64,000 bases of DNA from Anaerolineales bacterium. GTDB lineage: Bacteria > Chloroflexota > Anaerolineae > Anaerolineales > Villigracilaceae. Shown one piece after another: positions 9,962 through 64,000 of the stretch; position 1 is the first letter of the stretch, and the number at the start of each line of letters is the position of its first letter. The notes under the pieces were generated by a model, which saw only the letters and a program-made list of their open reading frames with translations, was not told where the DNA came from and made no database searches. Both the position numbers and the translations under genes were made by a program. The DNA lies in contig DATJAH010000044.1 in NCBI GenBank assembly GCA_035516425.1, forward strand, positions 147 through 64,146, in the 5' to 3' direction.

Positions 9962-9992
9962 AGATACCTCACAGCAACGGCTCGCGTTGCTT

Positions 9993-13279: not shown

Positions 13280-13314
13280 ATCGGGGACCAGTGATCGAGT
13301 GGCAGCAACCGGTG

Positions 13315-13331: not shown

Positions 13332-13332
13332 T

Positions 13333-13361
13333 ATTATAGTGCCGCACGGGGAAGATGTCAA
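13333..13361 (-). promoter_or_regulatory. Consensus sigma70-type promoter of the purine cluster
   Basis: On the minus strand it reads TTGACA, 17 nt, TATAAT (both hexamers perfect), about 50 nt upstream of the deaminase ATG. Confidence 0.6.
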
Positions 13362-13478
13362 ATGGAGTTTCGCCACGGCCTGTCCATCATAGCCATACTT
13401 TTGGTGGATGACCTCTCCAGGGCAAAGGAGGTACACTTCGGGCAGTTCAACTCAAGAGAAGATTCAGGAGTAAAGAAA

Positions 13479-13733: not shown

Positions 13734-13789
13734 GGCCATGCAGGGCGCCTTGCGCCGTGCCATCCTGCGCTCATCCTTCGCCGCACCCG

Positions 13790-13815
13790 CCCCGCCGCAA
13801 GGCGGGGTTCTGTTT
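13790..13815 (+). terminator. Rho-independent terminator
   Basis: CCCCGCC-GCAA-GGCGGGG hairpin followed by TTCTGTTT. Confidence 0.6.
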
Positions 13816-13969
13816 CCATAATAAGTAGACTGCCTCAAAATCGAATAGAATTACAAAACAGGAAAAGCAATTCAGTAAAGCATCGATTGGTCCTGGCCGG
13901 CGTTAATTCCAACCTGTCTCATTTCCTCCTTCAGCGGGATTATTACAGCAGAGAGGCTCAACCTGCTGA

Positions 13970-15717: not shown

Positions 15718-15796
15718 GAAATTCTTTCGGTACGCGGATTTCGCGGATCACACGGATTCCTTCTAAAAACTCTTTCCGGGTGAATCCGCGAAGTCT

Positions 15797-16759: not shown

Positions 16760-17622
16760 AGAACATTTGGATCCTCAGCCGCATGACGTTCCGCGAAGCC
16801 GTCCGCCGTCGCATCGTGGCGACCGGTTTGGCGCTTGGCCTCTGTTTTTTGATGGTGTATTCGATCGGATTCCATTTTATCTATGTTTCAGCCAGAAGCG
16901 CCGAAACCGCATTGCAGAGCAGTGCCATGAATCAAGCGGTGGTGCAAATTGCGGATGTGGAGGGAATAAATACGCTGCTGTTGGCAGGCTTGTACGCAGT
17001 CACCTTCCTGGCGATTGCGATGGCGGCGCTCTTAGCCGCGGATACCCTGTCTGGTGAGATCAGTTCGGGGACGATCCAAACCATCCTCACAAAGCCGATC
17101 CGACGATTCGAGATCATTTTGGGCAAATGGCTGGGGTTTGCTTTTCTATTGGGCCTATATTTATTGTTGATGGGTGGTGGAACCGTGGCAAGTGTATTCA
17201 TCCAGGCGGCATATCTTCCCGATCATCTCGCCGCTGGACTCGCTCTCATATATTTCGAAGCTTTATTGATCATGACCATCTCGATGGCATGTTCGAGCAC
17301 CATGTCCGCCTTGGCCACAGGCGGCGTCGTTTTCGGTTTATACGGCCTGGCATTCATTGGCGGATGGATCGAACAGTTCGGCGCGATCATCCAAAATCAA
17401 ACCGCGATCAAAGTCGGGATCATCGCCAGCCTGATCATCCCGAGCGAATCACTCTGGCGCAGAGCCGCCTTCGAAATGCAGACGCCTCTTACCGGCGCTT
17501 TGGGCATGTCGCCTTTTGGAACCTTCTCCGTCCCAAGCCTATTGATGATCGCATATACCGCAGTGTATTTGATCGTGACATTGATCATCACGGTTCGCGT
17601 TTTCGAGAGACGCGACATCTAG
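16756..17622 (+). CDS. ABC-2 type permease
   Basis: 288 aa with six hydrophobic segments. ATGA overlap with the ATPase gene. Confidence 0.7.
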   Translation: MKNIWILSRMTFREAVRRRIVATGLALGLCFLMVYSIGFHFIYVSARSAETALQSSAMNQAVVQIADVEGINTLLLAGLYAVTFLAIAMAALLAADTLSGEISSGTIQTILTKPIRRFEIILGKWLGFAFLLGLYLLLMGGGTVASVFIQAAYLPDHLAAGLALIYFEALLIMTISMACSSTMSALATGGVVFGLYGLAFIGGWIEQFGAIIQNQTAIKVGIIASLIIPSESLWRRAAFEMQTPLTGALGMSPFGTFSVPSLLMIAYTAVYLIVTLIITVRVFERRDI

Positions 17623-17703
17623 CCCTCCACAATGGATCGCTGATTCGACTCCTTCCTTGTGCATCACGGGGATTTCATCTACAATACAGCCAGCGGAAAC
17701 GCC

Positions 17704-18489
17704 ATGATGGAAAATCAAAGTCAACCACCGGAGTCAGCCCAACCATCCAACCGAAAATGGATCGCGCTTGCCGTTGGCGGCGGATGCGCCTTGGTGGCCG
17801 TTCTTATTGTCCTTGCCGCCCTCGCTTTCTATTTCCTCGGTCCAAGCATCGGAAGAACCTTCGGCTCGCTGGCTGGGATCCCCAGCGCGGCCGCGCCGGC
17901 CACCGACACCCCACAAAGTCAATCGTCGAACGTGGTCATGCCGCCGGCCAGGGACCATCCGCAGGCCGAGGGCAACAAGATGGGCGATCCGAATGCGCCG
18001 GTCAAGATCATCGAGTACGCAGATTTTCAATGCCCCTTCTGCCTGCACTATTGGCAGGAGACCGAGCCGCAGATCATCCAGGATTACGTTGCAACCGGAA
18101 AGGTCTATTACGAATATCGTTCCGTCGGCGGCTTCATCGGCCCCGAGTCGGCCGATGCGGCGAACGCCGCCTACTGCGCCGGGGATCAAAATAAATTCTG
18201 GGAATATCACGACGTGCTCTTCGCCAACTGGACAGGCGAGAACGCCGGCGATTTTACGCCGGATAAACTCCGTCAATATGCCGCGGCCATCGATTTGAAC
18301 ATGGACCAATTCAATACGTGTCTCAGCTCCGGCGCGCATACCGATCAAGTCAATCAAGATGTCCGCGATGCCAAAGTCGCAGGAGTTCAAGGCACGCCGG
18401 CGTTCCTCATCAACGGAAAATTGATCGAGGGCGCCCAACCCTATTCCTCCTTCCAGCAGGCCATTGACGCTGCACTGAACGGGCAATAA
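17704..18489 (+). CDS. DsbA-family thiol:disulfide oxidoreductase, membrane anchored
   Basis: TM anchor followed by a thioredoxin fold with an FQCPFC active site. The ATG at 17704 is preferred over the GTG at 17659. Confidence 0.8.
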   Translation: MMENQSQPPESAQPSNRKWIALAVGGGCALVAVLIVLAALAFYFLGPSIGRTFGSLAGIPSAAAPATDTPQSQSSNVVMPPARDHPQAEGNKMGDPNAPVKIIEYADFQCPFCLHYWQETEPQIIQDYVATGKVYYEYRSVGGFIGPESADAANAAYCAGDQNKFWEYHDVLFANWTGENAGDFTPDKLRQYAAAIDLNMDQFNTCLSSGAHTDQVNQDVRDAKVAGVQGTPAFLINGKLIEGAQPYSSFQQAIDAALNGQ

Positions 18490-18497
18490 GTTCGATC

Positions 18498-19286
18498 ATG
18501 CTCCGACGTCTGATGCTTGGGATCTGTCTAGCCTGCCTGCTGGCCTCCTGCAGGTCCGCTCCCCTATCGCTTCCGTCCACACCGACAAAGGCAGCCACAA
18601 CTGAAATACCTCCCCCGCCGACATCCACCGTCACGCTGGCCCCTTACCCATCCGATACACCGCCACCCACCGAAACGGCCACTCCATCCACCACGCCGAC
18701 ATTTGCGATTCTGCGCGGAACCGTGTTGGAAACATCCAATTGCCGTTACGGTCCCGGGGCACCTTATCTCTATTTCACCGGTTTGGTCGCCGGAAGCCAT
18801 CTGGAGGTGATCGGCCGACGCGAAGATTCGCAATGGCTTTATGTGCAGGCCATAGGCGGGCACAAACCCTGTTGGGTCAAGGCTTCGCAGATGGATGTTC
18901 CGGGCGATATCAACTCGCTGGAGATTTATTATCCCGATTTGGCACCGCTGCCGCAGTCGCCGTTTTATCCGCCGACAGCTGTAACCAAGGTGGTGCGCAA
19001 TGGTACACAGGTCAAAGTGACCTGGCTGGATATCCCATTACATCCCGGCGATGCAGAAAGCCCATCCATGCAGCATTACATCATCGAAGTATGGCACTGC
19101 GTCGGCGGACAAATTGTGTTCGACCCGCTGGCGACCAACGACACCTCCGTCACGTTTGCCGATGAACTGGGATGCAGCCAGTCAAGCCATGGAAGAATCT
19201 TTGTGCAGGAAAAACATGGCTTCGCTGGCCCGGCCGACATTCCGTGGCCGCCGTACACAACGGCACCCATGACGGCAACCCCTTAA
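18498..19286 (+). CDS. Lipoprotein with Pro/Thr linker, SH3-like and FN3-like segments
   Basis: Lipobox LLASC, then a PT-rich linker, then a CRYGPG...HLEVIGRR..WLYVQ segment. Function unknown. Confidence 0.45.
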   Translation: MLRRLMLGICLACLLASCRSAPLSLPSTPTKAATTEIPPPPTSTVTLAPYPSDTPPPTETATPSTTPTFAILRGTVLETSNCRYGPGAPYLYFTGLVAGSHLEVIGRREDSQWLYVQAIGGHKPCWVKASQMDVPGDINSLEIYYPDLAPLPQSPFYPPTAVTKVVRNGTQVKVTWLDIPLHPGDAESPSMQHYIIEVWHCVGGQIVFDPLATNDTSVTFADELGCSQSSHGRIFVQEKHGFAGPADIPWPPYTTAPMTATP

Positions 19287-19290
19287 GGTG

Positions 19291-20565
19291 TTACGGTAAC
19301 TCTTTGATCTGCGGGATTTTTCGCAGAACGACCAGGGTCAACGCCAAACTCAGCACGGCAAAGATCAGAATCGAATCGCCCAGTCCAATGGTTTGCGCCA
19401 GCGCCCCGATCGCCAGATTGCCCAGCGGCGTGAAGCCCAAGAAGGTCAGGGTGTATAAAGCCATCACTCGGCCGCGCAGTTGATCCTCGACCCGTGTTTG
19501 CAGAATGGTGTTGATCATCGTATATTGAATCATGAAGCCGATCCCCAGGCCCAGCGCAAGGATCAGGCAGACCGCGAGGAAGGGCGTAAAAGCAAAGATG
19601 CTGAGCAGGATCGGAAAGGCAATTCCCGAAATCATCAACCATGAGCCGCGCCAGCTTCTGCCATGTTGGTTGGCGACTATGATCGCGCCCGTCACCGCGC
19701 CAGCCCCGATGGCGGCATTGACCCATCCGTAGGAGGCTGCGCCCTGATGGAGCACCTGCTCAACAAAGGCAGGCAGCAGGGTGGCGTAGGAAACCCCAAA
19801 GGTGCTGAAGATCAAAGAGATCAGCAAGAGGCCGCCCATCTCGCGCCGCTTGAAAACATAGTGAAGGCCCTCGGTCAACTGCCTCCACGAGGATCCGATC
19901 GTCCGCAACCGGGTAGGAGGCTTGACCTCCATGATCGACAATCCGACGAGCACTGCAAGAAAAGAAATTCCATTGATCGTAAAGCACCATGCCGTGCCGA
20001 CCAGGGCCAGCAGGATTCCTCCGAGGGCGGGACCCACCACCCGCGCACTGTTGATCATCAAAGAGTTCAAGGCAATGGCATTCGGCATGTCCTGGCGTCC
20101 CACCATTTCCACCACAAATGCCTGTCCGCCCGGAGAATCGAACGAGTTGACCAATCCGAGACCGCCAGCCAGGAGAATGATGTGCCACTCGCGGACCGCG
20201 CCGGTAAAAGTCAAGGCGGCGAGAATGAACGCAAGCATCATCGCACTGGCCTGGGTAGTGATCAAGAGCCTGCGCTTCGGGACTCGATCCACCACTGCGC
20301 CCGCCCACGGTGAGATCACCAAAGCGGGAACCGCCGCCGCGAAGCCAACGATGCCGAGTGCCAGATCCGAATGCGTGAGTTGATAGACCAGCCAGCCTTG
20401 AGCGATGGTTTGCATCCAGGTGCCGATGTTCGAGATGAGTTGTCCGCCAAAATAAAGCTGAAAGCTTCGATACCTCAGGGCCGCGAACGCATCCGGCGCA
20501 GTTTCGATGCGCTTCGTCTCCTGCGACGATTCGATCGGCGATTCGTTAGCAATCGGTTCTTCCAA
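19291..20565 (-). CDS. MFS transporter (EntS/MFS_3-like)
   Basis: 424 aa with 12 predicted helices and an N-terminal FRSFQLYFGGQLISNIG motif. Confidence 0.8.
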   Translation of the reverse strand: MEEPIANESPIESSQETKRIETAPDAFAALRYRSFQLYFGGQLISNIGTWMQTIAQGWLVYQLTHSDLALGIVGFAAAVPALVISPWAGAVVDRVPKRRLLITTQASAMMLAFILAALTFTGAVREWHIILLAGGLGLVNSFDSPGGQAFVVEMVGRQDMPNAIALNSLMINSARVVGPALGGILLALVGTAWCFTINGISFLAVLVGLSIMEVKPPTRLRTIGSSWRQLTEGLHYVFKRREMGGLLLISLIFSTFGVSYATLLPAFVEQVLHQGAASYGWVNAAIGAGAVTGAIIVANQHGRSWRGSWLMISGIAFPILLSIFAFTPFLAVCLILALGLGIGFMIQYTMINTILQTRVEDQLRGRVMALYTLTFLGFTPLGNLAIGALAQTIGLGDSILIFAVLSLALTLVVLRKIPQIKELP

Positions 20566-20586
20566 AAGGGTTTACTCCACAGAATC

Positions 20587-20625
20587 CAAAACTTGCGCCG
20601 GCAACGTACGCTCGGGGGCGCAAGT
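20587..20625 (-). terminator. Probable terminator of the marR-ABC operon
   Basis: 9-bp stem ACTTGCGCC/GGCGCAAGT followed by TTTTGG on the minus strand. Confidence 0.45.
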
Positions 20626-20654
20626 TTATCCAACCCGTCCAATCTGACACCGCT

Positions 20655-21506
20655 TTATACGACGACCCGTGGATAGAGAATGGACCCAAGGATGACCAAT
20701 ACGGTCGTTGCAATCACCAGGATGAGGAAGTCAAAACCAAAGCTGTAGGTCATTTGACCGCCCGCCAGCATCAGCCCGCGCAGGGCGTCCACTTCATAGG
20801 TCAGCGGGTTGACGCGTGAGATGACCTGCAGCCAAGCGGGCATGATGCTGATCGGATAGATGGCATTGCTCGCAAAGAAAAGCGGCATGGTCATGACCTG
20901 GCCGATCCCCATGAAGCGCTCGCGCGTTTTGACCAGGCAGGCGATGATCAGCGAGAATGTCGCAAAGAACGCCGCGCCCAGAATCACGATGACAAGCATC
21001 CCCAGCAGCGCCAGCAGGTTCCAGTTCATCTTCACGGAAAGTAACAAGGCGAGGATATAAATAAAGAGCGCCTGTGCCAGGCTGCGAACACCGGCGGAGA
21101 GGGCCTTGCCCAGAACCAGCGCGCCGCGCGGCGTGGGCGTGGCGAGGAACTTATGGACAATGCCCAGGTCACGTTCCCAGATGATCGCAATGCCATAAAA
21201 GATCGAGACGAATAGCACGCTCTGGGCCAGGATGCCCGGCGTCATGAATTCAATATACGATTCCGAACCGGTCGGGATGGCGCGGATGCGCGTGAACACT
21301 TCGCCGAAGACCAGCAGCCACAACGCCGGTTGTACGGCGCGCGTGACCAGTTCGGTGGGATCATGCTTCAGTTTGCGAATTTCAAGTTCTGCAATAACGA
21401 AAGTCTTTTGGATAAAGCCAAGGATTGCAGAGACAAAACCGAAGGGCTGATGTTGAACCGGTTCAACCCAAGCGGCGAGCGGTACGTCTTGTTCTAGATG
21501 TTTCAC
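20655..21506 (-). CDS. ABC-2 type permease (DrrB-like)
   Basis: Six hydrophobic segments. The GTG start at 21506 has GGAGGT 8 nt upstream; the ORF is open to 21560. Confidence 0.75.
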   Translation of the reverse strand: MKHLEQDVPLAAWVEPVQHQPFGFVSAILGFIQKTFVIAELEIRKLKHDPTELVTRAVQPALWLLVFGEVFTRIRAIPTGSESYIEFMTPGILAQSVLFVSIFYGIAIIWERDLGIVHKFLATPTPRGALVLGKALSAGVRSLAQALFIYILALLLSVKMNWNLLALLGMLVIVILGAAFFATFSLIIACLVKTRERFMGIGQVMTMPLFFASNAIYPISIMPAWLQVISRVNPLTYEVDALRGLMLAGGQMTYSFGFDFLILVIATTVLVILGSILYPRVVV

Positions 21507-53115: not shown

Positions 53116-53144
53116 TTGACCGACGGTGTGCCTCACGGTAAAAT
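53116..53144 (+). promoter_or_regulatory. Sigma70-type promoter placed for a tRNA transcript
   Basis: TTGACC, 17 nt, TAAAAT, ending 9 nt before tRNA position +1 (53154). Confidence 0.5.
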
Positions 53145-53153
53145 CATCTCATT

Positions 53154-53209
53154 GCGGGAGTCGCCAAGCGGTAAGGCGTCAGCCTTCCAAGCTGATATTC
53201 GCGGGTTCG
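53154..53209 (+). repeat. Left direct repeat (attL-like): nt 1-56 of tRNA-Gly(UCC), not a functional tRNA
   Basis: 56/56 identity to 61569-61624. After GGGTTCG the sequence diverges, and there is no 3' acceptor strand. Confidence 0.85.
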
Positions 53210-53283
53210 GTCCCCACGTTGGTAGCACCCATATCCAGAAACTCATTTGAAACCGTCATCCAACCCACAGGAGGCGGTTCTTT

Positions 53284-54207
53284 ATGGCTATTTCCAAGGA
53301 CACAAAGCAAGGATGGGCATCAGCCTCGAGCGCGCTGAGTGAGGCATTGACAGACTTCATTCTGTCACGGCAGGCTATGTTGTGTTCACAAAGAACGTTG
53401 GCATGGTACAGCTTTACATTGGGGAAATTCATGCAGTGGCTGGAAGACAATGGCGCGACAACGGCTCAGGAGATCACGGCGAAGCATGTCAGAGCCTACT
53501 TGGCCAGTCTGGCCGAACGGAGACTAGAGGACAGCACCATCAATAACCACGGCCGGGCAATCCGAACCCTGCTGCGTTTCTTCCATGCCGAGAAATATAT
53601 CCGCGAACCCATCACCTTTCAGATCCCGTCGATCGCTGAAAAGCGGCTCCCCTGTCTATCCGGGGAAGCAGTAACGCAACTATTGGATGCCTGCCAATTA
53701 CCCCGAGACAGGGCTCTTCTTCTTCTGATGGTGGACACAGGCCTGCGAAGAGCTGAATTGTGTGCTCTGAACTGGGAGGATATGGACATAGCGACGGGCG
53801 TTGTGCGAGTTGTGCGCGGAAAAGGCGGGAAAGCCAGGAGCGTGGTGGTGGGCGTTTCCACTCGGAGAGCGCTACTAGCCTACCGCAGATCCTTGACAAC
53901 GACCGACGAAAAACCGGTCTTCCAAACAAGCAGTGGCGGCCGCCTGTCTTTCAATGGTTTGCGGTCGCTGCTGCTGAGGCTGGGCAAACGAGCCGGCGTC
54001 AAGGTATCCCCGCATGCGCTTCGGCGAACTTTCGCGACCCTGTCGCTCCGAGCCGGCATGAACTTGATCCATCTCCAAGGTCTGATGGGGCATTCCACCA
54101 TCGAGATGACGAAGCACTATGTTCAGCTTCTTGATGAAGATCTTGTGCAAGCACATCGGGCTCATGGACCCATCGACAACTTGCTGCGCAAAGAAAGGAA
54201 CGATTAG
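53284..54207 (+). CDS. Tyrosine recombinase / integrase (XerC/D-like, complete catalytic set)
   Basis: GLRRAE (Arg-I), GKGGKAR (Lys), HALRRTFAT (HxxR), GHSTIEMTKHY (His, Tyr). AGGAGG RBS. Confidence 0.85.
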   Translation: MAISKDTKQGWASASSALSEALTDFILSRQAMLCSQRTLAWYSFTLGKFMQWLEDNGATTAQEITAKHVRAYLASLAERRLEDSTINNHGRAIRTLLRFFHAEKYIREPITFQIPSIAEKRLPCLSGEAVTQLLDACQLPRDRALLLLMVDTGLRRAELCALNWEDMDIATGVVRVVRGKGGKARSVVVGVSTRRALLAYRRSLTTTDEKPVFQTSSGGRLSFNGLRSLLLRLGKRAGVKVSPHALRRTFATLSLRAGMNLIHLQGLMGHSTIEMTKHYVQLLDEDLVQAHRAHGPIDNLLRKERND

Positions 54208-54487
54208 AGGCACAAGACAAGAGGGCGGCGCGCCTGGAGCAGTAAGCTTGTGCGTGGCCGGAAGCAATCTGTGCAACGAAAGATGGCCGCTTGGCCTTCA
54301 GTGCTTCGGCATGCCTGTATCGAGAGGCCAGCTGGCGTTCAAACGTACGCCGGTTCTCATGCAGTGTCCTTTTGCAAGTACCAACCGAGAAATATTACAT
54401 TTGTCTTGATTTCGCGTTCAAATTGCACTTTCATTTGCGTTGCCATCAAATCAATAATGAAAAGGTAGGGAAAGGAGAGTGGATATC

Positions 54488-57400
54488 ATGGACACGAAAT
54501 TTCGATGGGCCACTTTTGCACTGACTGTGTTGTTGGCAGTTGCCCTGAGCGCGATGGCAGCAGCGCCTGTGCTGGCGGATGGCGGCACAACGCCGCCCCA
54601 GCCGACAGGCAGGACCGCTAGGAAGGGATCTTCGCCGACCACCACCGGCCAGGTGCCCGCGGGGACCAAAATCGTGATTTTGGACACCAACGGAAACAAG
54701 GTCGTGATGGGAACACAGGAGGCCGAGCAAATCCTAGCAAGTGGTGATCCTGTCTGGTGTCCGGCCACGCTGGCGGCGCCGTCCCCTGGTACGGGAGGAT
54801 GTACAAGTCCTGGCGGATCGACCTATGATGCGGACAGTCTTGTCAGCCTGCTGAACTACCTAGCCAAAAACCAATCGCTGTTTGCCAAGAACGGGACGAT
54901 CTGGATTGAAGCCTCTTATAACAGCGGGTCAGCAAGCTCTCCAGATTATGGGGTGACCGCATTTACGTTGGACGGCGATGCTGGTTTCGGTACCATGAAG
55001 AACTTTTCCTTGACCATTCAAGGCGGCTGGATTGGCACGCCGGGGAGCCATGAGATCACAGGTCAATCGGAATTTGATGGCACGCTGAACATCCTGCACT
55101 GGAATGGAAATGTCACGGTGAACGATGTATTGATACAGAACACCACGACCGGCGATGCCCTGACTATTTCCACAACCAAGAACATTGTGCTAGGTGGAGC
55201 CAAAGGGGTGGAGGCGAACTACAACACGGGCGGGAAAGGCGCTAGCTTGGACAACACAAGTGGCACCGGAACGGTGACCGTGAACAACAGCGAATTTGAC
55301 GGGAACTCAGATGACGGTCTTCAGGTCCTCAGCCGTGGAGCGATAGCCGTCGACAACTTGAAGGCTGTCAGCAACGGCGAGACCGGAGCGTACCTGGACA
55401 ATTGTCAGTCCTATCAGTACGATACAGCTAATGACCTGTGGAAATGCTCGACCTTGGCTGCATCTGGTGTTACGTTGAGCGGCAACAACTACTTTGACGG
55501 CAATGGCCAGGATGGGCTCGAAGTCTACAGCAACGGCGCGATCGCTGCGCACAATCTGGTGGCGGGCGACACCCTGGGCAACCTAGTGGACGGGGCATAC
55601 CTTGATAATTGCCAATTTGGTGATCCGACAAATTGGACAGTTGGATGTACGGTGGCCGGCGCGCCACCCGTGACATTGACCGGGACGAACCAGTTTGACA
55701 ACAACGGAGAAAGGGGCTTGGCTGTCGAGACCACAGGAAATATCACAACGAATAACCTCACGGCCGTGAACAACGGAGCAAATACCGTTGGTTCGGGAGG
55801 CGTCTCACTCCAGAACTGCCAGGAGTACGAGTACAATACTGACCTGGCCTACTGGAAGTGTTCTGTGTCCACGCCACATACGGTGACACTAACTGGCCAA
55901 AATCTCTTCGAAGACAACGGCGTTGACGGCGTGGACATCGCTAGTACCGGTGCGATTACGATCAATGCACTTACCGCATCCGGTAACGGTAGCAACGTCT
56001 CATCGCCCTACTTGGAAACAGAGCAAACCGGCGGCGTAGGTGCTGCGATAGGAAACTGCACTTGGGACGGCGGGACCGACAAATGCGACGGAAGCGGAAA
56101 CGTCACACTCACGGGCACAACCACGCTGAATGGAAATCACTCCGCTTACATCGAACCGGGTATCTATGATCAACCCTCAGCTGCCCTGACAATCAACAGC
56201 AGTGGGGCCATAAGCATTCAGGACGTGACATCGACCCACGACTATCGGGGCGCCGGCGCCTGGTTGGACAATTGTAATAACGTTGATGGCACAGGTTGCG
56301 GCACCGCTGCGGCATATCCAGTCACGGTTGCGTCTGGCACGTTCAATGGGAACGCCACCGATGGTTTGGACATTGACAGCAACGGAGACGTTGCGCTTGA
56401 GAATATCACCGCCGGAGTTGCTGGGCTTGGTAACGGTGGCAACGGGGCTCTCGTGGACAATTGCCAGGCCAACTACGTTGAACAGTGCACGGTTCCAGTT
56501 GGCCAGTCGGTTTCCCTTACGGGCACCAACACATTCGCGGACAACGGCTATTACGGACTGGATGTTAATAGTAACGGCAATATCTTCGCTAGCAACCTGG
56601 TCGCCACGGACAACGGAACCGGTGGGATAGTGCTGCTCAATAACGGGCACGATGGGAAGCAAAACATCACGCTTGCGGGCTACACCAGGGCCGACAACAA
56701 CCGCGGCGACGACGGCCTAGGCATTTCAACTGATGGTAATGTCGCGGCCAGCAATCTGGAGGCCTCAGGCAACCAGCGGCAGGGCGTTTTGATCATGGCC
56801 GATGAAGTTGTCCTGGCTGGTACGAACACATTTGAAAACAATGCTGCAGAGGGGTTGGATGTTGCGTCCTTCGGAGGCGCGACCATCAAGAATGTCAGTA
56901 CGAGCGGTAACGGCATAGGGCTGTATGTGGACGCCGGAGGCCCAATTGCGGTCTATAACATTACGGCCAAGGCAAACCTCGGCGGGGATGGCGTCCACCT
57001 GGATAACTGCAACGATTTCGGTGGGGAAGGATGCAGCACAGCAGGCGGACAACCTGTTACCTTACTTGGCACCAATGTATTTGACGACAACCACGGCATG
57101 GGTTTGGAAGTGGAAAGCTACGGGAGCATTACTACCAGCAACCTCGAGGCCAGTGGCAACACTGGGTCAGGCGTACATCTGGAAAATGATTACGTCTTCT
57201 ACAACTTGTATGGCATCAAGAACGATGGTACCCAGTCCAATGGCCTAGTGACGCTCACCGGAACCAACTTATTTTCCGGCAACTTGGAGGGCCTGATCGT
57301 GGATAGTTACGGCGCGATCAAAGCCGGCAACGTGAACGCGATTTCCAATGCTGGAGATGGCGCCTACTTTACGAACTCCGGCCCCGCCAAAGCCCAATCC

Positions 57401-58600
57401 ATCACGCTGACAAACAGCAACTCCTTTTCCTACAATGACGATAACGGGTTGGAAGTTCATTCCAACGGCGCGATTAACGTAAGCAGTATCACGGCCGATG
57501 CAAATACGGGAGGTGATGGTGTTCTCCTGGACAATTGTGGAGAGGCTGCTCCTCTAACTCCGCCCTGCACCATAAAAACAGCCCGGGCCATTACATTGAC
57601 TGGCAGTGACGTGTTCAACGGCAATAAGTACAATGGTTTGGAGATAAATAGCGGCGGATCAATCGCTGTGAACACAACAGCCCTGATTGCCAACGCCGAC
57701 GGAGTGAGCGGTTCTGCAGGCAGTGGCGTTGCTTTGAATAACGCCGGCGCGGCTACGCCAATGTCAGTGACCGTCAATGGCACTAGTTTCTTTGACGGCG
57801 ACTTTGGCAACGGTATGTATATCCTTTTCAGGGGCGCCATCACAACCAACAACATTACGGCGATAAACACGGTTACGCAATCAGGTCTGGTGTTTGATAA
57901 TTCCGTACTGGACTATCCTGGCGCAGTGGGCAGCGTGACCATGAATGGAACGAACGTAGTAGACGACGATGCGCTTAATGGCGTGGCGATTTCGTCAGCC
58001 GGTGCGATCACGGTCGACAACGTAACTGTGGACGGCAACCAGATGAGCGGCCTTTGGCTGGATAACTGTATGGAGGCTACGCTCGGAACTCCGCCCTGTA
58101 CAACACCTACAGCCCAGACTGTCATTTTGAATAATGTCGTCGCCAATAATAATGGCGTCGCAGGCAAATTTAATGGCATTGAAGTAATGAGCAAAGGCAC
58201 AATCAAAGCTAAGAATATCACAGCCAGTGGCAACACCGGGAATGGCGCAAGTCTCGATAACAGTCAAGGTTCGTCCCTTGCCGCGGTGATATTTGCCGGA
58301 GCCAACTTCTTCAATGCCAATACTAGCGGTGATGGCTTGTTGATCAAATCTCACGGCCCGGTGTCGCTAACCAAGATCACAGCCAACTTGAACAGCGCCG
58401 ACGGATTGAATGTCACTACGCCGTCCACCTTAACGCTCACGTGCGGCACCTTCGTGAACAACGCCGGATACGGCGTCAATCTGGATACGGGTCTGAGCGC
58501 GACCCTGAATGGTGTCGTGTTTATTAATGACACGGCTGGCAATACGAACCAGACAGGCGGCGGAGCACCGATCATAACCTCCACCTGCACGCTACCTTAA
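54488..58600 (+). CDS. Giant secreted right-handed beta-helix-type repeat protein
   Basis: Signal peptide ...AAAPVLADG, then about 18 degenerate 45-80-aa units (G-L/V-x-V-x-S-x-G-x-I...N-L/I-T-A..N...VTLTG.N.F..N). Nine units contain an N-C...C loop. The ORF is also open from GTG 54479. Confidence 0.8.
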   Translation: MDTKFRWATFALTVLLAVALSAMAAAPVLADGGTTPPQPTGRTARKGSSPTTTGQVPAGTKIVILDTNGNKVVMGTQEAEQILASGDPVWCPATLAAPSPGTGGCTSPGGSTYDADSLVSLLNYLAKNQSLFAKNGTIWIEASYNSGSASSPDYGVTAFTLDGDAGFGTMKNFSLTIQGGWIGTPGSHEITGQSEFDGTLNILHWNGNVTVNDVLIQNTTTGDALTISTTKNIVLGGAKGVEANYNTGGKGASLDNTSGTGTVTVNNSEFDGNSDDGLQVLSRGAIAVDNLKAVSNGETGAYLDNCQSYQYDTANDLWKCSTLAASGVTLSGNNYFDGNGQDGLEVYSNGAIAAHNLVAGDTLGNLVDGAYLDNCQFGDPTNWTVGCTVAGAPPVTLTGTNQFDNNGERGLAVETTGNITTNNLTAVNNGANTVGSGGVSLQNCQEYEYNTDLAYWKCSVSTPHTVTLTGQNLFEDNGVDGVDIASTGAITINALTASGNGSNVSSPYLETEQTGGVGAAIGNCTWDGGTDKCDGSGNVTLTGTTTLNGNHSAYIEPGIYDQPSAALTINSSGAISIQDVTSTHDYRGAGAWLDNCNNVDGTGCGTAAAYPVTVASGTFNGNATDGLDIDSNGDVALENITAGVAGLGNGGNGALVDNCQANYVEQCTVPVGQSVSLTGTNTFADNGYYGLDVNSNGNIFASNLVATDNGTGGIVLLNNGHDGKQNITLAGYTRADNNRGDDGLGISTDGNVAASNLEASGNQRQGVLIMADEVVLAGTNTFENNAAEGLDVASFGGATIKNVSTSGNGIGLYVDAGGPIAVYNITAKANLGGDGVHLDNCNDFGGEGCSTAGGQPVTLLGTNVFDDNHGMGLEVESYGSITTSNLEASGNTGSGVHLENDYVFYNLYGIKNDGTQSNGLVTLTGTNLFSGNLEGLIVDSYGAIKAGNVNAISNAGDGAYFTNSGPAKAQSITLTNSNSFSYNDDNGLEVHSNGAINVSSITADANTGGDGVLLDNCGEAAPLTPPCTIKTARAITLTGSDVFNGNKYNGLEINSGGSIAVNTTALIANADGVSGSAGSGVALNNAGAATPMSVTVNGTSFFDGDFGNGMYILFRGAITTNNITAINTVTQSGLVFDNSVLDYPGAVGSVTMNGTNVVDDDALNGVAISSAGAITVDNVTVDGNQMSGLWLDNCMEATLGTPPCTTPTAQTVILNNVVANNNGVAGKFNGIEVMSKGTIKAKNITASGNTGNGASLDNSQGSSLAAVIFAGANFFNANTSGDGLLIKSHGPVSLTKITANLNSADGLNVTTPSTLTLTCGTFVNNAGYGVNLDTGLSATLNGVVFINDTAGNTNQTGGGAPIITSTCTLP

Positions 58601-58653
58601 CAGTGCTCGCACCTCAATCGAGTAGAGGGCAGTGATTAACTGCCCCCTCTCAC

Positions 58654-58685
58654 ACCACCGAGCATGCGGGGCCGCACTCGGCGGT
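58654..58685 (-). ncRNA. Group II intron domain V-like hairpin
   Basis: Minus strand reads ACCGCCGAG-UGC-GGCCCC-GCA-UG-CUCGGUGGU: a 9-bp lower stem, a 2-nt 3' bulge, a 3-bp upper stem, and CGC in the triad position. It starts 3 nt after the RT stop. Confidence 0.5.
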
Positions 58686-58688
58686 TCA

Positions 58689-59858
58689 TCAAGTAAAACG
58701 CAGTTCGTGATACCGTTTGTTGATACTCTTCAACCCTGAGGTATGCCAATAGACATTGCTGAGGGCTTCTTTCGTCACAGGGTTGTTGGCCATTCGCCAG
58801 GGGCTTGTGCCTCCAGCTCCTTCTTGTGCCCATTGTTTCGGAACACCCAGCTTCACGAGTTCCCGATAGCGAGTTGTGCCGCGCTTCCAGCGTTTCCAGA
58901 TTAGTTGCCTTAGCCGTCGTCTTATCCATTGATCCAGTTCTTCAAAGATACTCGGGGTATCCGCCAGCCGGTAATATCCAATCCAGCCGATAACATAGCG
59001 GTTGATTTCTTTCAGGATTTGTTCCAATGTGCCGCTCCGAGTACGCTTAGTCAGGATGCGTAGCCTCTCCATAAAGCGTTCTTTTGTTTCGTTCGCGATG
59101 CGGATCAATACAATCCCTTTCCGTTTGAAGAAACTGAACCCAAGAGTTTTCACCTTCACTGCTCTTTCCACCTTACTTTTCTTGGGATTAACTTTCAGCT
59201 TGAGCTTCTTTTCCAGAAATCCTTTCACGCTTTCCATGACCCGTTCCCCAGCACGCTGCGTCTTGACATAAATGTTGCAGTCATCAGCGTAGCGTACAAA
59301 CTTATGCCCACGTTTCTCCAATTCCTTATCCAGATCATCCAGCATGATGTTAGAGAGTAATGGTGAGAGTGGCCCGCCTTGCGGCACGCCTTCTTCCACA
59401 TTAATTACTACCCCATTGATCATCACGCCTGATCCCAGATAGGCTCGGATTAGTTTCAGCACTCGTTTGTCTTTCACTATCCGTGCAACACGGGCCATCA
59501 GCATATCGTGGTTCACCCGATCAAAGTATTTCTCTAGATCGATGTCCACACACCATTCGTATCCTTCCTGCACGTACGCTTGGGCTTGCCTCACGGCTCC
59601 ATGTGCACTGCGGCCAGGTCGAAACCCATAACTGTGTTCCGAGAACAGCGGTTCAAAGATCGGAACCAGCTCCTGTGATATCGCTTGTTGGAGAAAGCGA
59701 TCCAACACATTCGGTATCCCTAGCTGCCTGACCCCTCCGTCTGGCTTGGCTATCTCAACTCGCCTGACTGCGCTGGGTCGGTAGCTTCCGCTTTCAAGAG
59801 CTGTCCTGATCTCCAACCAATGTTCCTTCAGGTACGGGCGAAGTTCTTTCACCGTCAT
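58689..59858 (-). CDS. Group II intron reverse transcriptase/maturase, N-terminally truncated
   Basis: RRVEIAKPDGGVRQLGIP, SYGFRPGRSAH, DLEKYFD, GVPQGGPLSPLL, RYADDCNIYV, then an X/maturase block GWIGYYRLAD...WIRRRLRQLIWKRWK. No En domain. The consensus ...NKGxxGVDG before MTVxEL is absent. Confidence 0.85.
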   Translation of the reverse strand: MTVKELRPYLKEHWLEIRTALESGSYRPSAVRRVEIAKPDGGVRQLGIPNVLDRFLQQAISQELVPIFEPLFSEHSYGFRPGRSAHGAVRQAQAYVQEGYEWCVDIDLEKYFDRVNHDMLMARVARIVKDKRVLKLIRAYLGSGVMINGVVINVEEGVPQGGPLSPLLSNIMLDDLDKELEKRGHKFVRYADDCNIYVKTQRAGERVMESVKGFLEKKLKLKVNPKKSKVERAVKVKTLGFSFFKRKGIVLIRIANETKERFMERLRILTKRTRSGTLEQILKEINRYVIGWIGYYRLADTPSIFEELDQWIRRRLRQLIWKRWKRGTTRYRELVKLGVPKQWAQEGAGGTSPWRMANNPVTKEALSNVYWHTSGLKSINKRYHELRFT

Positions 59859-60693
59859 CCCGGATCTCCTGCTCGCTCTTGCCGTACTTCTTCTGCGCCT
59901 CGGCGACGACCTGCGCGAACGTGCCGGTGTAGTCCTTCGTCTTCGTCTCAGCCATGGCTTGCGCCGTAAGGCTGTTTTCCGATGTCGGAATGGAAGCGCG
60001 TACTGGTGCATCCGCCCCGCCCGCCATCCAGTCCGCCAACACTTTGAAGAACTTGAGGTCCGGCTTGACCATCTGGCGATCGGCGAGGTCTTTGCAGCGC
60101 GACTTGGACACGATCAAGCGATGGTCCACGTCCATATCGCAGACGATGGTGAACTCGTATTCCACGCCTGCGCGCTGAATGGGCGCCATGCCCAGTTTCT
60201 TGATGGTCTTCTTGCCGCCTTCATCGACCTGCTCGTAGTCCATCTTGGAGCGCATGGTCACGATGATGTGGGCCGGGGATTGAAGCATGGCATCGATCAA
60301 TTTGTTGTGCAGCGGCGTCACCTTTCTCCAGGCCACATAGGAATTGCCGGACTTGGAGGCCGCCACCGCCTGATCCACGAGAGACAGCGCGCCGCCCTCG
60401 CCTTCCCAAGCGTGCGACATGCTGTCGATCACGATCACGTCATATCCCGCATCTTCCGCCGAGTGGATCGCCTCCACGTAGACTTCGGGCGAGAAATTGC
60501 GATGATCCATCGGGAGTTCGAGGACATCGAATTTGAAATAGTCGGCATACAAGCGGGCAGAACCGCGCTCGGTATCGATGACTGCGACCTTGCCACCATC
60601 GGCCAGCGCCGTGGCAGCCATCAGCGCGGTATAGGTCTTACCCGCACCAGATGGACCGCGGACTACGTTTAAGGGGCACCGGGCGCAGCACTG
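59794..60693 (-). pseudogene. Phage-type RecA-fold ATPase (AAA_24/Sak4-like), decayed at both ends
   Basis: Walker A GPSGAGKT (60634-60657) lies upstream of the first ATG/GTG/TTG (60621), only 13 codons after an in-frame TGA. Walker B VIVIDSMSH. The 3' end runs into the truncated intron near 59860. Confidence 0.6.
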
Positions 60694-60803
60694 TCACCGT
60701 TCGCACGCTCCAGGCTCACCGGTGAAACAGAAAGGAGCCTCCCTCTCAGCACGCTGTATAATGTATAGAGATAGAGAGTTTACGGCTGAAGAGAGCGGGA
60801 ACC

Positions 60804-61376
60804 ATGACAGACCCAGAGCCAAGGGAACCACCAAAAGCTGCAAAGAGCGAAAAGCTGGCGGTCGCCGGTTTGGTCTCGGGCGCGAAGCCGGTGCTTGTCT
60901 GGCTGGTGTTGATCGCGGCAGCGGCAATCGTCGCGCTAATCCTGCTGTACAACGCCCTGTTCCCCCAAACGCATTGGCAAAATCGCGAGCTGGACCGAAA
61001 CCTCGCCAAGTGGACGAAGCAAGGTATTACCCACTACCGGATGTCCGTAGATGTAGGGGGCTACGGCAACTTCGCCAACATGCCGTTGAGGGTGGAAGTC
61101 CAGAATGACGATGTCGTGTGGGCAGTGGACGCGCAGGGACGCAAGGTGACCACTGGAGATGGCTTGGGCGTGGGCCCGTACTTCCCGTCTAAATTGACGA
61201 TCACTGGGCTGTTCTCTTTTTCGCATGAGTTAATCTTGCGAAAGCCGGCCATGCTGCTTATCAGCTATGATCCTGCCCTGGGTTATCCTCAGTCAATTTA
61301 CATTGACCCTTGGCATGAGCCCTGCTGCCAGGACTATGCGATCGGAGTGGAGGACTTCAAAATCCTTTCACCTTAA
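60804..61376 (+). CDS. Membrane-anchored hypothetical protein
   Basis: 190 aa with one TM helix (aa ~30-52) and a C-terminal CC pair. TATAAT lies about 40 nt upstream. Confidence 0.5.
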   Translation: MTDPEPREPPKAAKSEKLAVAGLVSGAKPVLVWLVLIAAAAIVALILLYNALFPQTHWQNRELDRNLAKWTKQGITHYRMSVDVGGYGNFANMPLRVEVQNDDVVWAVDAQGRKVTTGDGLGVGPYFPSKLTITGLFSFSHELILRKPAMLLISYDPALGYPQSIYIDPWHEPCCQDYAIGVEDFKILSP

Positions 61377-61568
61377 GAGCTGCTGCCAACGGGAGCCAAG
61401 CTGGCACCGGGGTCGACGTCTTCATTGCGTTTCGCCTTGCCCAATGGACATAATTCCAATATAATCAGATAACAAAAAGAGGCATCAGCCTCAACGGTTC
61501 GAATGAGTTTCAGATCCCCGAAAAACGAGAGTTTCGAGAGGATCCAGGGGTAAAACACCCTATTTCCT

Positions 61569-61640
61569 GCGGGAGTCGCCAAGCGGTAAGGCGTCAGCCT
61601 TCCAAGCTGATATTCGCGGGTTCGAATCCCGTCTCCCGCT
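61569..61640 (+). tRNA. tRNA-Gly (anticodon UCC, 61601-61603)
   Basis: Full cloverleaf folded by hand: acceptor GCGGGAG/CTCCCGC, D stem GCC/GGC, anticodon stem TCAGC/GCTGA with loop CTTCCAA, T arm GCGGG-TTCGAAT-CCCGT, discriminator T. No encoded CCA. Confidence 0.9.
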
Positions 61641-61709
61641 CTGCTTAGCGGTTAGTCATTAGCGTTCCGTGGTCCATCAACGTTAACTGCTAATCGCTAA
61701 TTGCTTTCC

Positions 61710-61750
61710 GGGCCCGTGGCGCAGTGGTTAGCGCAGGCGACTCAAAATCA
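61710..61750 (+). repeat. Orphan tRNA 5' fragment (acceptor 5' strand, D arm, anticodon stem-loop CUCAAAA; Leu-CAA if the loop is native)
   Basis: GGGCCCG-TG-GCGC-AGTGGTTA-GCGC-A-GGCGA-CTCAAAA then TCA; tRNA-like structure stops here. No variable arm, T arm or acceptor 3' strand within the next 100 nt. Confidence 0.55.
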
Positions 61751-61841: not shown

Positions 61842-62951
61842 CTACTGCAATTTTAATGCGACCGGAGTGATCTTTTCCTCGATCTTTTCAGCAGCTTCTT
61901 CCTGTGAACGGCCAATGGAATGACCATAGATATCGGTGGTGACGCTCGCCTTCGAGTGACCCGATCTCTGCTGCACCGTATTGACCGGTGTGCCCATCTC
62001 CAACAGGAAAGTAATCGATGTGTGACGCAGGTCGTGAAAGCGGATATCGGGGAGACCCGCTTTCATCAGCACCTTCTTGAACTCCTTGGATACCTTGCTA
62101 TCATCCAAAAAAGTACCGAGGCTGTTGGTGAATATCAGGTCATCTTCTGTCCATGGATTTTGGAGTCTTCGATGAACTTCCAGTCTTCTCAACGTCTCAG
62201 GACCGAGTTGGATCTGGCGCCGTCCAGCCTTCGTCTTGGGCGGCACAAGCTCAAAGCGTCCAGAGATCTGTTGAAGCTGCCGCTGAACCAGAAGGATTCC
62301 TTTCTCCCGATCAAGGTCGGTCCACTTCAAACCTAGGAGTTCTCCTTTGCGCATCCCACTCGCAAGTGCCAGGTAAAAGAGCATTTCATAGGGCGAGCCG
62401 CAGCAAGCGATTAGGAACTGTTGAACTTGTTCTTCGTTCAAGATTTGGAATTCCCTGCGTTCCACCCTCGGTCTTTGGACCGCATCTGCTGGGTTGCGAC
62501 CCAGGATGCCTTCCTTCACCGCTTGTTGCAACGCTGCATGCAGCACCACGTGCGCCAACTGGATCATGCGCGCCCCCTTGCCTTCCTCTTTCAGCTGGGC
62601 ATATAAACGCTTGAGATGATCCGGTTGGATTTGCTGAAGCCGCATTTTGCCAAGATAGGGAAGGATATCTCGCTCGGCCGTGCCGCGATACCCACGCGCG
62701 GTCCAGGGTCGGACAGACAGCACCTTGCTTCCCAGCCAGGTTCTCAAGAACGACTCTAAGGTGATCTTCGTACTATCATAGGTCAAGCCGCCTTCGATCC
62801 GTTCCATGGTTACCTTGATCCATTCTCGGCATTCCGTTGGGCTCTTACCGTATTTCGTGACTCGTCTTCCATTCAGACTGACTTGCGCGCACCAAAATCC
62901 ATCTTTTCGCTGATAGAGCGTGCCTTCGTGGTTTCCTCTTCTTTTAGCCAT
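61842..62951 (-). CDS. Phage-type tyrosine integrase
   Basis: N-terminal GTLYQRKDGFWCAQV arm-binding-type domain. Catalytic residues ASGMRKGE, HDLRHT and GHSKASVTTDIY. ATG 62951 sits 7 nt after AAGGAGG. Confidence 0.85.
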   Translation of the reverse strand: MAKRRGNHEGTLYQRKDGFWCAQVSLNGRRVTKYGKSPTECREWIKVTMERIEGGLTYDSTKITLESFLRTWLGSKVLSVRPWTARGYRGTAERDILPYLGKMRLQQIQPDHLKRLYAQLKEEGKGARMIQLAHVVLHAALQQAVKEGILGRNPADAVQRPRVERREFQILNEEQVQQFLIACCGSPYEMLFYLALASGMRKGELLGLKWTDLDREKGILLVQRQLQQISGRFELVPPKTKAGRRQIQLGPETLRRLEVHRRLQNPWTEDDLIFTNSLGTFLDDSKVSKEFKKVLMKAGLPDIRFHDLRHTSITFLLEMGTPVNTVQQRSGHSKASVTTDIYGHSIGRSQEEAAEKIEEKITPVALKLQ

Positions 62952-63081
62952 GTACATACCTCCTTGCAATTGTGGAGGTCAAGTTCAGAAGAATGAGTCT
63001 GGATGACTGTACTATTTGAATGTTAAGGTGCCATCTGCCACTAGGCAGATTGTAACCCATACGCAAACACATCCTTTGAAA

Positions 63082-63291
63082 TTACTCCCCATCGCTCGGT
63101 GATGGCATCGTGAGATTGCCCTGCACTGCATTGCTGTGGAGATATCCTTCCAGATCTTCCGGTCTGACACGTAATGACTTTCCAACATGCACCACTGGAA
63201 GTTCACCGCGCTTCAACATGAGATACGCATAGGAACGACTGACTTTCAAAATCTTGGCGACTTCATCGCCGGTGAGTAGGGGTTGTGTCAT
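63082..63291 (-). CDS. Excisionase-family helix-turn-helix protein (HTH_17/MerR-like), copy 1
   Basis: 69 aa. LLTGDEVAKILKVSRSYAYLMLKRGELPVVHVGKSLRVRPEDLEGYL. ATG lies 7 nt after TATAAT. Confidence 0.7.
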   Translation of the reverse strand: MTQPLLTGDEVAKILKVSRSYAYLMLKRGELPVVHVGKSLRVRPEDLEGYLHSNAVQGNLTMPSPSDGE

Positions 63292-63592
63292 GGACGGCAT
63301 TATAGAAAATAGACCATCCAAAGTCAAGCGATGGCTCATCCACTGCTTCCATAGCGTTATTTGGCTTATAGACTTTTTTAAACTCAATAACCTATGGACA
63401 GAATGGACGGGGCTTCTAACTTCACCATGCAGCCTGGGCGAACATAAGAATTGGTACAAAGAATTGGAGCAGATCACTTCATTCGTGACTGCGCAGCGGT
63501 ATCGTATACCAATGTGCCGCTGTGCTTGAGTGCCATCGTAACCCAAGGAAGAGAAAATTGCGATTGATTGATCTGACACTGGATCAAAGCAG

Positions 63593-63802
63593 TCAATCTC
63601 TTTCGAGGAAAGATTGCGCGACGGTATAGCTCCCTGACGCATTATCATTGATATATCGTTCTAGATCTTCTGGCCTCACCCGCACTGCACCTCCGACATG
63701 CACAGTTGGAATGTCGCCGCGCTTCATCAATAGATAAGCGAATGAGCGGCTTACATGGAGGATCTTGGCGACCTCCTCACTCTTAAGTAATTGTTGCTGC
63801 AT
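63593..63802 (-). CDS. Excisionase-family helix-turn-helix protein, copy 2
   Basis: 69 aa. LLKSEEVAKILHVSRSFAYLLMKRGDIPTVHVGGAVRVRPEDLERYI. GAGGAG lies 8 nt upstream of the ATG. Confidence 0.7.
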   Translation of the reverse strand: MQQQLLKSEEVAKILHVSRSFAYLLMKRGDIPTVHVGGAVRVRPEDLERYINDNASGSYTVAQSFLERD

Positions 63803-64000
63803 TTGATAACTCCTCAGATCAAAACGATGAATGGGTGGCATTATAGAGACCACATAATCCGAAGTCAAGCAACGGCTTGTCCATTGATTACATGGGGTTG
63901 CTTGGCTTATAGACTTTTTAAAACTTGAGACACTATGGAAAAAGATGTAAGGCTTGGAAAACAATGAGTACACTGATCGCCGACACCAACCACCCAATCA

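Follow-up and report, generated by a model that had tools for sequence, protein, structure and literature searches.

Elements that integrate into tRNA genes favour the 3' side of the gene, and the standard answer to the old question of why they do so is that the rebuilt gene then stays under the control of the host promoter. Here we describe an island of ~8.4 kb that occupies a tRNA-Gly(UCC) gene in the mirrored layout, found in 64,000 nucleotides (nt) of DNA from an Anaerolineales bacterium (contig DATJAH010000044.1 of assembly GCA_035516425.1, positions 147 to 64,146 of the forward strand; this whole stretch is referred to as the window, and its first letter is position 1). Islands in tRNA genes (tDNA islands) of this kind have been catalogued by Islander, in which 159 of 3919 carry a 5' tDNA fragment as against 3760 with a 3' fragment (Hudson et al., PMC4383910); the program allows for a 5' fragment on the upstream side of the tDNA, and its filter drops matches that lie inside full-length tRNA genes (PMC4383910). 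Krupovic et al. (2019, PMC6563490) describe use of the 5'-distal region of tRNA genes as 'considerably less frequent', and cite Zhao & Williams 2002 together with several archaeal cases. The first-pass annotation of the window had taken the mirrored layout as a departure from known elements, a claim that these reports do not support, as the layout is rare but documented.

The window element is a 5'-restoring tDNA island, and its novelty is modest. The element of Zhao and Williams is reportedly a tyrosine-integrase element in reversed orientation relative to its target tRNA gene, and it resembles the window element in both respects; the two differ in that the window host belongs to the Chloroflexota (Anaerolineales), the integrase is of a different, Xer-like family, and the reversal is clade-wide in the window's relatives and recurs in a family that is mostly of the usual layout. 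Like the 5'-fragment islands of Islander, which combine an intact tDNA, a cognate 5' fragment in the same orientation upstream of it and an integrase gene between the two over 2-200 kb, the window has a full-length tRNA (61569-61641) and a cognate fragment (53154-53209), both on the + strand. The end fragment runs from tRNA nt 1 (plus one nucleotide upstream) and lies 8.4 kb upstream of the gene, an integrase gene (int1) is in the interval, the repeat spacing of 8415 nt falls within the 2-200 kb range, and the island is missing at the same site in five related loci (L110-L112, L014 and L012). Unlike these islands, the whole-tRNA relatives of the window island described below would fall to the filter against full-length tRNA genes. 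Ordinary anticodon-loop islands (Islander sublocation 'A'; class I of Williams 2002) resemble it in using a tyrosine integrase, in targeting a tRNA gene, in probably crossing over in the anticodon stem-loop and in restoring the gene from tRNA sequence in the element's attachment site (attP); their identity block extends toward the 3' end, whereas the window block extends toward the 5' end and would carry the promoter function. Archaeal 5'-distal elements such as CalSub-E1 in tRNA-Ser (PMC6563490) are alike in recombining with the 5' side of the tRNA gene and unlike in their archaeal hosts and unrelated integrases.

The island is bounded by a 57-nt perfect direct repeat (53153-53209 = 61568-61624) that covers nt -1 to 56 of tRNA-Gly(UCC), that is, the 5' acceptor strand into the T loop plus the T preceding tRNA nt 1. 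The features of its two ends are as follows.

53116 to 53144, + strand: native host promoter of tRNA-Gly, TTGACC-17-TAAAAT (promoter scan; the same sequence lies directly 5' of intact tRNA-Gly in L110, L012 and L014)
53153 to 53209, + strand: left direct repeat, core of the left junction (attL), a displaced non-functional 5' fragment (perfect repeat; no tRNA call; partial Rfam match of 32 bits)
61568 to 61624, + strand: right direct repeat, core of the right junction (attR) (perfect repeat)
61569 to 61641, + strand: functional tRNA-Gly(UCC) (ARAGORN; Rfam 68 bits; the downstream spacer matches the unoccupied site, attB, of L110 and L012)

The repeat had first been reported as 56 nt; it is real and perfect, but it is 57 nt long once the T before nt 1 is included. 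A search allowing up to 3 mismatches gives exactly two matches in the window and none in 100 dinucleotide shuffles, with a start-to-start distance of 8415 nt. ARAGORN calls a single tRNA over the whole window, the tRNA-Gly(tcc) at 61569-61641, and makes no call at the left copy; Rfam matches the right copy to the full model with 68 bits, whereas the left copy reaches 32 bits and matches model positions 10-63 only, in agreement with the earlier claim that only the right copy is complete. Past nt 56 the left copy reads GTCCCCACGTTGGTAGC and the tRNA reads AATCCCGTCTCCCGCT, such that the left copy keeps a weak T-arm remnant (TCCCCAC vs TCCCGTC, at 53211-53217) and the 3' acceptor strand is missing. 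The left fragment is identical to the live tRNA at 57/57 positions and the identity stops abruptly, with no fading, which suggests that the island is recent or actively maintained. Three more independent metagenome assemblies (L001, L002 and L003) are 99.67-99.98 % identical to the window, align without gaps and have both junctions alike. Because all four assemblies agree on both junctions, the structure is real and not an assembly artefact.

The boundaries of the island are defined by empty sites in relatives. The 56-nt core was searched in species-representative genomes and led to seven metagenome-assembled genomes of Anaerolineales or other Chloroflexota, each with one intact tRNA-Gly and six of the seven also with an intact tRNA-Met just 3' of it (L011-L013, L015-L017). 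In L012 and L014 the intact tRNA-Gly is preceded by the window's left promoter (cTTGACC...cacGGTAAAATca...) and followed by the window's right spacer. The missing tRNA-Met of L014 was considered as the mark of another island and rejected, the downstream genes being ordinary host genes (P-type ATPase, M50 peptidase, PPK2). Three further loci (L110, L111 and L112), found through a homologue of a second integrase in the window (int2), have the host genes of the window's left flank (SDR, DinB_2, PAP2, NTP_transf_3, PAS histidine kinase and glycosyl hydrolase 4) at ~76-82 % nucleotide identity, and in all three the promoter context of 53116-53153 is fused to an intact tRNA-Gly that is followed by the spacer of 61642-61709. 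With blastn, L110 1613-2915 corresponds to window 53209-51926 and L110 145-1669 to window 63057-61568, and the sole break is at 53209|61568. An alignment of attL and attR against three attB sites (A2) agrees: the sequence upstream of attB matches that upstream of attL, and the sequence downstream matches that downstream of attR. The inserted segment is thus exactly 53210-61567 plus one repeat copy; int1 is absent from the syntenic empty sites, and genus-level relatives are without the island. Because the empty sites join the left promoter to the right spacer, the left flank is native and the functional tRNA has island DNA 5' of it, in a mirrored layout.

The first-pass annotation had anticipated much of this: a native promoter in front of the left copy (the TTGACC-17-TAAAAT seen 5' of intact tRNA-Gly in the relatives), a mirrored geometry with island DNA upstream of the functional gene, and empty sites (now L110-L112, L014 and L012) in which that promoter is fused to an intact tRNA-Gly. 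Relatives carry the left-hand 53116-53153 context ahead of the tRNA rather than that of 61500-61568. In the window the host promoter now precedes a dead fragment and an integrase gene, and the functional tRNA-Gly(UCC), as read from these alignments, takes its 5' part, up to the crossover, from the island and its 3' part and downstream spacer from the host.

The left end of the island carries the integrase gene, and an inverted repeat relates it to the right end.

53210 to 53283, + strand: island left arm, with the diverged T-arm remnant, a family motif CCCATATCC at 53228-53236, an inverted-repeat arm at 53238-53256, and a hairpin with a T-run at 53251-53283 just before the int ATG
53284 to 54207, + strand: int1, a Xer-like simple tyrosine integrase of 307 amino acids (aa) (Pfam Phage_integrase, PF00589, 4.8e-32)
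61494 to 61511, + strand: right-arm copy of the inverted repeat (ACGGTTCGAATGAGTTTC), pairing with the left arm at 53238-53256

As the annotation had it, an intact tyrosine integrase gene begins 75 nt past the dead left fragment. Its product has a catalytic domain with the R-K-H-R-H/W-Y residues of tyrosine recombinases; H244, R247, H270, Y279, the Arg in GLRRAE and the Lys in GKGGKAR do not vary among the 27 family members aligned in A1, and the catalytic residues align with those of the XerC-like 4a8e, the nearest solved relative (1e-26). All of its NCBIfam scores are below the cut-offs (172.7/220 bits for XerA, 159.5/335 for XerC and 147.6/330 for XerD), and these scores, together with its location in a repeat-bounded insertion missing from relatives, rule out int1 as the host XerC/D. 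The inverted repeat is also present in six relatives, L068 (14 nt), L069 (16 nt), L046, L084, L032 and L036, with a motif length of 10-19 nt across the window island and these six, and a longest exact match in the relatives of 16 bases (L069). Shared between the two arms of the window island and of the six relatives, this motif marks both ends as parts of a single element. In many family members a hairpin plus T-run leads up to the int start codon (window 53251-53283; L068 9946-10006; L098 9966-10002; L102 8572-8610); the L068 example is strong (-30 kcal/mol, z = -8.7), that of the window weak (z = -0.7). Its probable role is to block read-through from the tRNA promoter, and it may alternatively control translation of int.

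Taken together, we think it very likely that this is an integrative element that was inserted site-specifically into tRNA-Gly(UCC) by its own Xer-like integrase, with an attP carrying the 5' part of the tRNA. The arrangement in A2 is that of a reverse-oriented element, with the tRNA 5' part in attP and the rebuilt gene at the end that has island DNA upstream. On this account attP carries nt -1 to 56 of the tRNA instead of its 3' part, recombination leaves the host promoter and a dead 5' fragment at the integrase end (attL), and at attR a complete tRNA is rebuilt from the island 5' part and the host 3' part. Strand exchange would take place in the anticodon stem-loop, at about nt 29-40, rather than in the T loop. 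The expected attP junction would read GGTAAAACACCCTATTTCC-57-nt core-GTCCCCACGTTGGTAGC, and the expected attB would read GGTAAAATCATCTCAT-core-AATCCCGTCTCCCGCT.

There are 1033 int1 homologues at E <= 1e-20. To place int1 among its relatives we examined 80 metagenome loci encoding int1 relatives, and added look-ups of close relatives. The ordinary layout is present in 47 of the 80, where a whole tRNA gene lies 5' of int on the same strand and stops 46-146 nt short of it; the tRNA is Gly-CCC, Gly-UCC, Pro-UGG, Arg or Leu. Eleven others have a 5' tRNA fragment only, behind a strong promoter: L018 (nt 1-42), L019 (1-54), L029 (1-48), L033 (1-49), L038 (1-61), L056 (1-42), L062 (Pro, 1-47), L063 and L071 (Arg-CCG, 1-40), L085 (Leu, 1-47) and L093. 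The look-ups added L098 (closed genome OW818655.1, 1-48), L102 (1-56), L104 (1-52), L106 (1-41), L107 and L113 (1-54). Eight of the closest relatives have upstream DNA that could be examined (L113, L106, L018, L098, L102, L104, L019 and L107, at 66-75 % aa identity to int1), and all eight adjoin tRNA-Gly(UCC) 5' fragments, ending at nt 41-56. A neighbour-joining tree groups the window integrase with those of L018, L102, L019, L098 and L104, all at such fragments, with other 5'-fragment cases scattered among ordinary ones (L029/L033 by L025, L085 by L092, L062 by L055). Within the window clade the left host flanks differ where readable: SDR in the window, a minus-strand tRNA-Arg in L019, L098 and L113, an ECF sigma factor in L102 and a beta-lactamase-family gene in L106. 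Because these flanks vary, elements of one kind must occupy this tRNA in more than one host. Many family loci have a CCCATAT-type motif just past the tRNA copy. In viral contigs the only int1 relatives are distant (32-41 % identity), and the attP-specific junction pattern is absent from them.

How the rebuilt tRNA is expressed is a separate question, as the host promoter is at the other end of the island. A promoter scan predicts an outward-facing site at the right end.

61437 to 61465, + strand: predicted outward-facing island promoter, TTGCCC-17-TATAAT (promoter scan)

This site is sigma-70-like with 10/12 consensus matches, lies 102 nt 5' of the right repeat, and has no terminator-like site on the + strand between it and the tRNA. 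The annotation had reported that the sequence upstream of the right copy only loosely resembles the left -10 region. That description fits the proximal GGTAAAAC, a weak match that aligns with GGTAAAAT of the host -10 region in A2, lacks the final T, has no usable -35, and has the look of a decayed version of that region; the better TTGCCC-17-TATAAT was overlooked. An outward promoter-like site is found within 180 nt of the right repeat in seven of nine family elements with both ends visible, where shuffles predict 0.96; random 180-nt windows of the same loci contain one in 8 % of cases each, and the opposite strand has one in 1/9 elements. Such a site thus appears, on these predictions, to be a feature of the int1 family.

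Promoters of the 'Pcirc' type, in integrative elements such as ICEclc, face outward at one end of the element, and lie 5' of int only once the element circularises. The predicted island promoter is similar in its position at the element end and in coming to lie upstream of int after circularisation; it differs in being a prediction, and in that in 5'-type elements it would also drive the host tRNA while integrated. In the excised circle the 61437-61465 promoter would read through the core into int, and in the integrated island it would transcribe the rebuilt tRNA with a ~95-nt leader, which would be trimmed by RNase P. The outward promoter would then be a circularisation-dependent int promoter that also serves the tRNA in 5'-type elements, and its presence as a family feature would make 5'-side restoration workable.

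Several points weigh against this account. No excisionase, replication or transfer genes are recognisable within the island (53210-61567), and an island without accessory mobility genes and with a dead intron may be a decaying remnant. Neither a circular attP junction nor a same-strain empty site was recovered, from assembled contigs only. The window island is the only 5'-type element of its clade with a visible right end, since the sequences of L019, L098, L102, L104, L106, L107 and L113 end before any right-hand copy, and an intact tRNA at the far end of the others is assumed. The 61437-61465 site is the best candidate promoter of the rebuilt tRNA-Gly by consensus match only, and a contribution to tRNA expression could come instead from DUF6174 transcripts that read through, or from the degenerate proximal GGTAAAAC. 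The window taken alone is equally compatible with a crossover in the T loop.

An alternative that we regard as unlikely is that the island is a fixed relic, old and immobile, with the right copy under selection and the left copy young or gene-converted. It is favoured by the missing mobility genes, by cargo that includes a 5'-truncated group II intron, and by seven contigs with this exact integrase that are all occupied wherever the junction is reached. It fits less well with an integrase open reading frame (ORF) that is intact with its catalytic residues, with perfect repeats, and with the finding that genus-level relatives are without the island while related elements occupy the same tRNA in several host backgrounds.

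The position of the crossover can be approached by comparing the nine elements with both ends visible. Perfect direct repeats of the whole tRNA, 75-97 nt long and some including flanks, leave a complete tRNA at both ends of L032 (420-494/8347-8421), L068 (9849-9945/20044-20140), L069 (9850-9932/15110-15192) and L084 (49-123/11022-11096). In elements of the usual type the identity blocks start at nt 5 (L046), 16 (L091), 25 (L036) and 29 (L090) and run through the 3' end. The 5' type, to which the window island as the ninth element belongs, has blocks whose last nucleotide falls at 40-62. Only nt 29-40 is present in every block, within the anticodon stem-loop (raw positions 26-42 of tRNA-Gly), and the crossover is placed in the anticodon stem-loop because this is all that the blocks share. 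The anticodon loop is also the commonest known crossover sublocation. If one sublocation is assumed family-wide, strand exchange probably occurs at about nt 29-40, and the identity out to nt 56 in the window would be leftover homology rather than the exchange point.

It is improbable, in our view, that in a layout as described the strands are exchanged in the T loop instead, where the identity block ends; this would put the island in the T-loop sublocation class. The window identity does end in the T loop (GGGTTCG|), and the left copy keeps a stem-loop-like GCGGG TTCGGTC CCCAC that is a possible imperfect core site. However, identity in close relatives ends at nt 41, 42, 48, 52 and 54, before the T loop, and in relatives of the usual type it starts at nt 25-29. 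These elements could not recombine in the T loop, and a shift of sublocation within a clade of 66-75 % identity is unlikely.

Post-integration decay is an explanation to which we give little credence. Here a whole-tRNA attP would have produced two complete tRNAs, the left copy would later have lost its 3' end, and the mirrored look would be secondary. The whole-tRNA repeats of 75-97 nt in L032, L068, L069 and L084 provide a precedent, and the weak T-arm remnant of the left copy is in keeping with it, as is the distance from tRNA nt 1 to CCCATAT, which at ~66-76 nt in 5'-fragment loci vs ~73-83 nt in intact ones suggests that the 3' part has been replaced and is not simply absent. Against this, identity falls from 57/57 to essentially none at a single position, and the eight closest relatives examined are all alike with differing end points and readable flanks, for which inherited attP variants are a better fit than nine independent decays. 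Moreover, excision of a decayed prophage would itself make a 5'-type attP, so this explanation mainly describes the origin of the design. That no integrase event was involved, and the repeat arose by misassembly or by duplication through a transposon, intron or recombination, can be dismissed as hardly credible. The only point in its favour is the group II intron remnant within the island; against it, four independent assemblies have identical junctions, syntenic empty sites bound the insertion to the base, and the spacing of integrase and tRNA copy is conserved, being shared with more than 60 related loci.

For the integrative element favoured here, a possible although tentative account of how the layout came about is that the ancestral attP had a complete tRNA copy behind an outward promoter. 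Integration at the anticodon loop would have yielded two usable genes, the choice of which half attP kept would have been neutral, and the layout would have flipped repeatedly between 3' and 5'. The 5'-type lineages scattered through the family number at least five, in addition to the Gly(UCC) clade with the window island.

Other loci in the survey have unusual arrangements. In L041 (~6250-6440), L053 (~780-925), L057 (~1095-1242) and L052 (~9815-10000) a tRNA 3' fragment precedes the integrase, with non-tRNA DNA upstream; the fragments start at ~nt 20-22 in L041, L053 and L057 and at ~nt 39 in L052, and form attP-like junctions. These could be excised forms, tandem arrays or unintegrated replicons. 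L047 (1343-1415 on the - strand, 1522-2424 on the + strand, and 9239-9278) is two-ended and has a repeat of tRNA-Gly(CCC) nt 1-40; its intact tRNA is on the strand opposite to int and diverges from it, off the family pattern, and a 13-nt copy of the tRNA 3' end lies ~30 nt past the far repeat. L114 (IMGVR_UViG_3300042114_000212, 245-2796 and 3900-4075) is a viral contig with portal and terminase genes directly 5' of an intact tRNA-Gly(UCC), and has ggaTATAATcagaaa ~70 nt before the tRNA, the window counterpart being caaTATAATcagata ~100 nt before the tRNA. L114 may be the right end of a prophage with the same 5'-side or whole-gene layout. The island of L098 (OW818655.1 2049201-2070127) contains, at 11141-20927, a second integrase, a NACHT ATPase and three TIR-pentapeptide-repeat genes, and its cargo looks like anti-phage defence.

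The remainder of the window island is occupied by cargo genes and an intron remnant.

54479 to 58600, + strand: cargo, right-handed beta-helix repeat protein of 1373 aa (Pfam Beta_helix 2.4e-22; internal repeats D2, D5 and D6)
58617 to 59858, - strand: 5'-truncated group II intron remnant (Rfam Intron_gpII 40 bits; Pfam RVT_1 and GIIM; translation)
59794 to 60621, - strand: cargo, AAA_24 ATPase, its 3' end running into the intron remnant (Pfam AAA_24 2.1e-20)
60804 to 61376, + strand: cargo, DUF6174 protein, on the tRNA strand (Pfam 2.8e-18)

The intron remnant has domains V-VI at 58617-58686 and a reverse transcriptase (RT)/maturase ORF that is missing RT-0 at its N terminus; domains I-III are not found ahead of the RT ORF. 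It abuts the 3' end of the AAA_24 gene and is probably an incomplete retrohoming product. The intron was also considered as the maker of the direct repeat and rejected, being a 5'-truncated remnant well within the island.

A second island begins 68 nt downstream of tRNA-Gly, in tRNA-Met(CAU).

61710 to 61744, + strand: tRNA-Met(CAU) 5' fragment, nt 1-35, left end of the second island (comparison with intact tRNA-Met in L011-L013 and L015-L017)
61842 to 62969, - strand: int2, a second, unrelated tyrosine integrase of 375 aa, of the tRNA-Met island (Pfam Phage_integrase 5e-25 and Phage_int_SAM_3)
63082 to 63648, - strand: HTH_17 DNA-binding protein beside int2 (Pfam HTH_17 8.8e-12)

The break in the tRNA-Met fragment falls in the anticodon loop; L110-L112 (L110 1380-1530) are arranged likewise, with nt 38 as the break point. 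There are 3165 int2 homologues, and no int2 relatives were found in viral contigs. The pairing of int2 with an HTH_17 gene recurs in L108, L111 and L112, and the HTH_17 protein is possibly an excisionase or regulator of the second island. In L108 a 73 %-identical int2 homologue is in the ordinary layout beside an intact tRNA-Leu(CAA), and the loop at the tRNA-Met junction in the window is CTCAAAA, like that of tRNA-Leu(CAA). The window stops short of the far end of this island, and tRNA-Met is either rebuilt or simply disrupted. A 109-nt direct repeat (63290-63398 and 63831-63939, 76 % identity, 541 nt apart) lies in the second island near HTH_17.

In the literature we found no Anaerolineales family analysed as tDNA islands in this way, and further searches on 5'-side usage gave nothing; nor did we find a description of one integrase family with ordinary, whole-tRNA and 5'-restoring members and a conserved outward promoter. 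What is new here is that the eight closest relatives examined are all at tRNA-Gly(UCC) 5' fragments, that the wider family is mostly of the usual layout or with whole-tRNA repeats and has other 5' cases scattered through it, that the identity blocks overlap only at nt 29-40, and that outward promoters are predicted in 7/9 two-ended elements. Island finders that reject repeats inside full-length tRNA genes miss the whole-tRNA members, and with two adjacent tRNA genes both occupied in mirrored layout in the window, such islands may be under-counted in Chloroflexota. The int1 family provides a natural comparison, with 3'-restoring, whole-tRNA and 5'-restoring members, most of them with an outward promoter-like site, and the promoter-supply explanation is testable because these layouts coexist within related integrases. 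If the tentative account of an ancestral whole-tRNA attP is correct, a single promoter would act on int in the excised state and on the host tRNA in the integrated state, and the near-universal 3' rule would be a promoter-supply constraint from which the int1 family has escaped.

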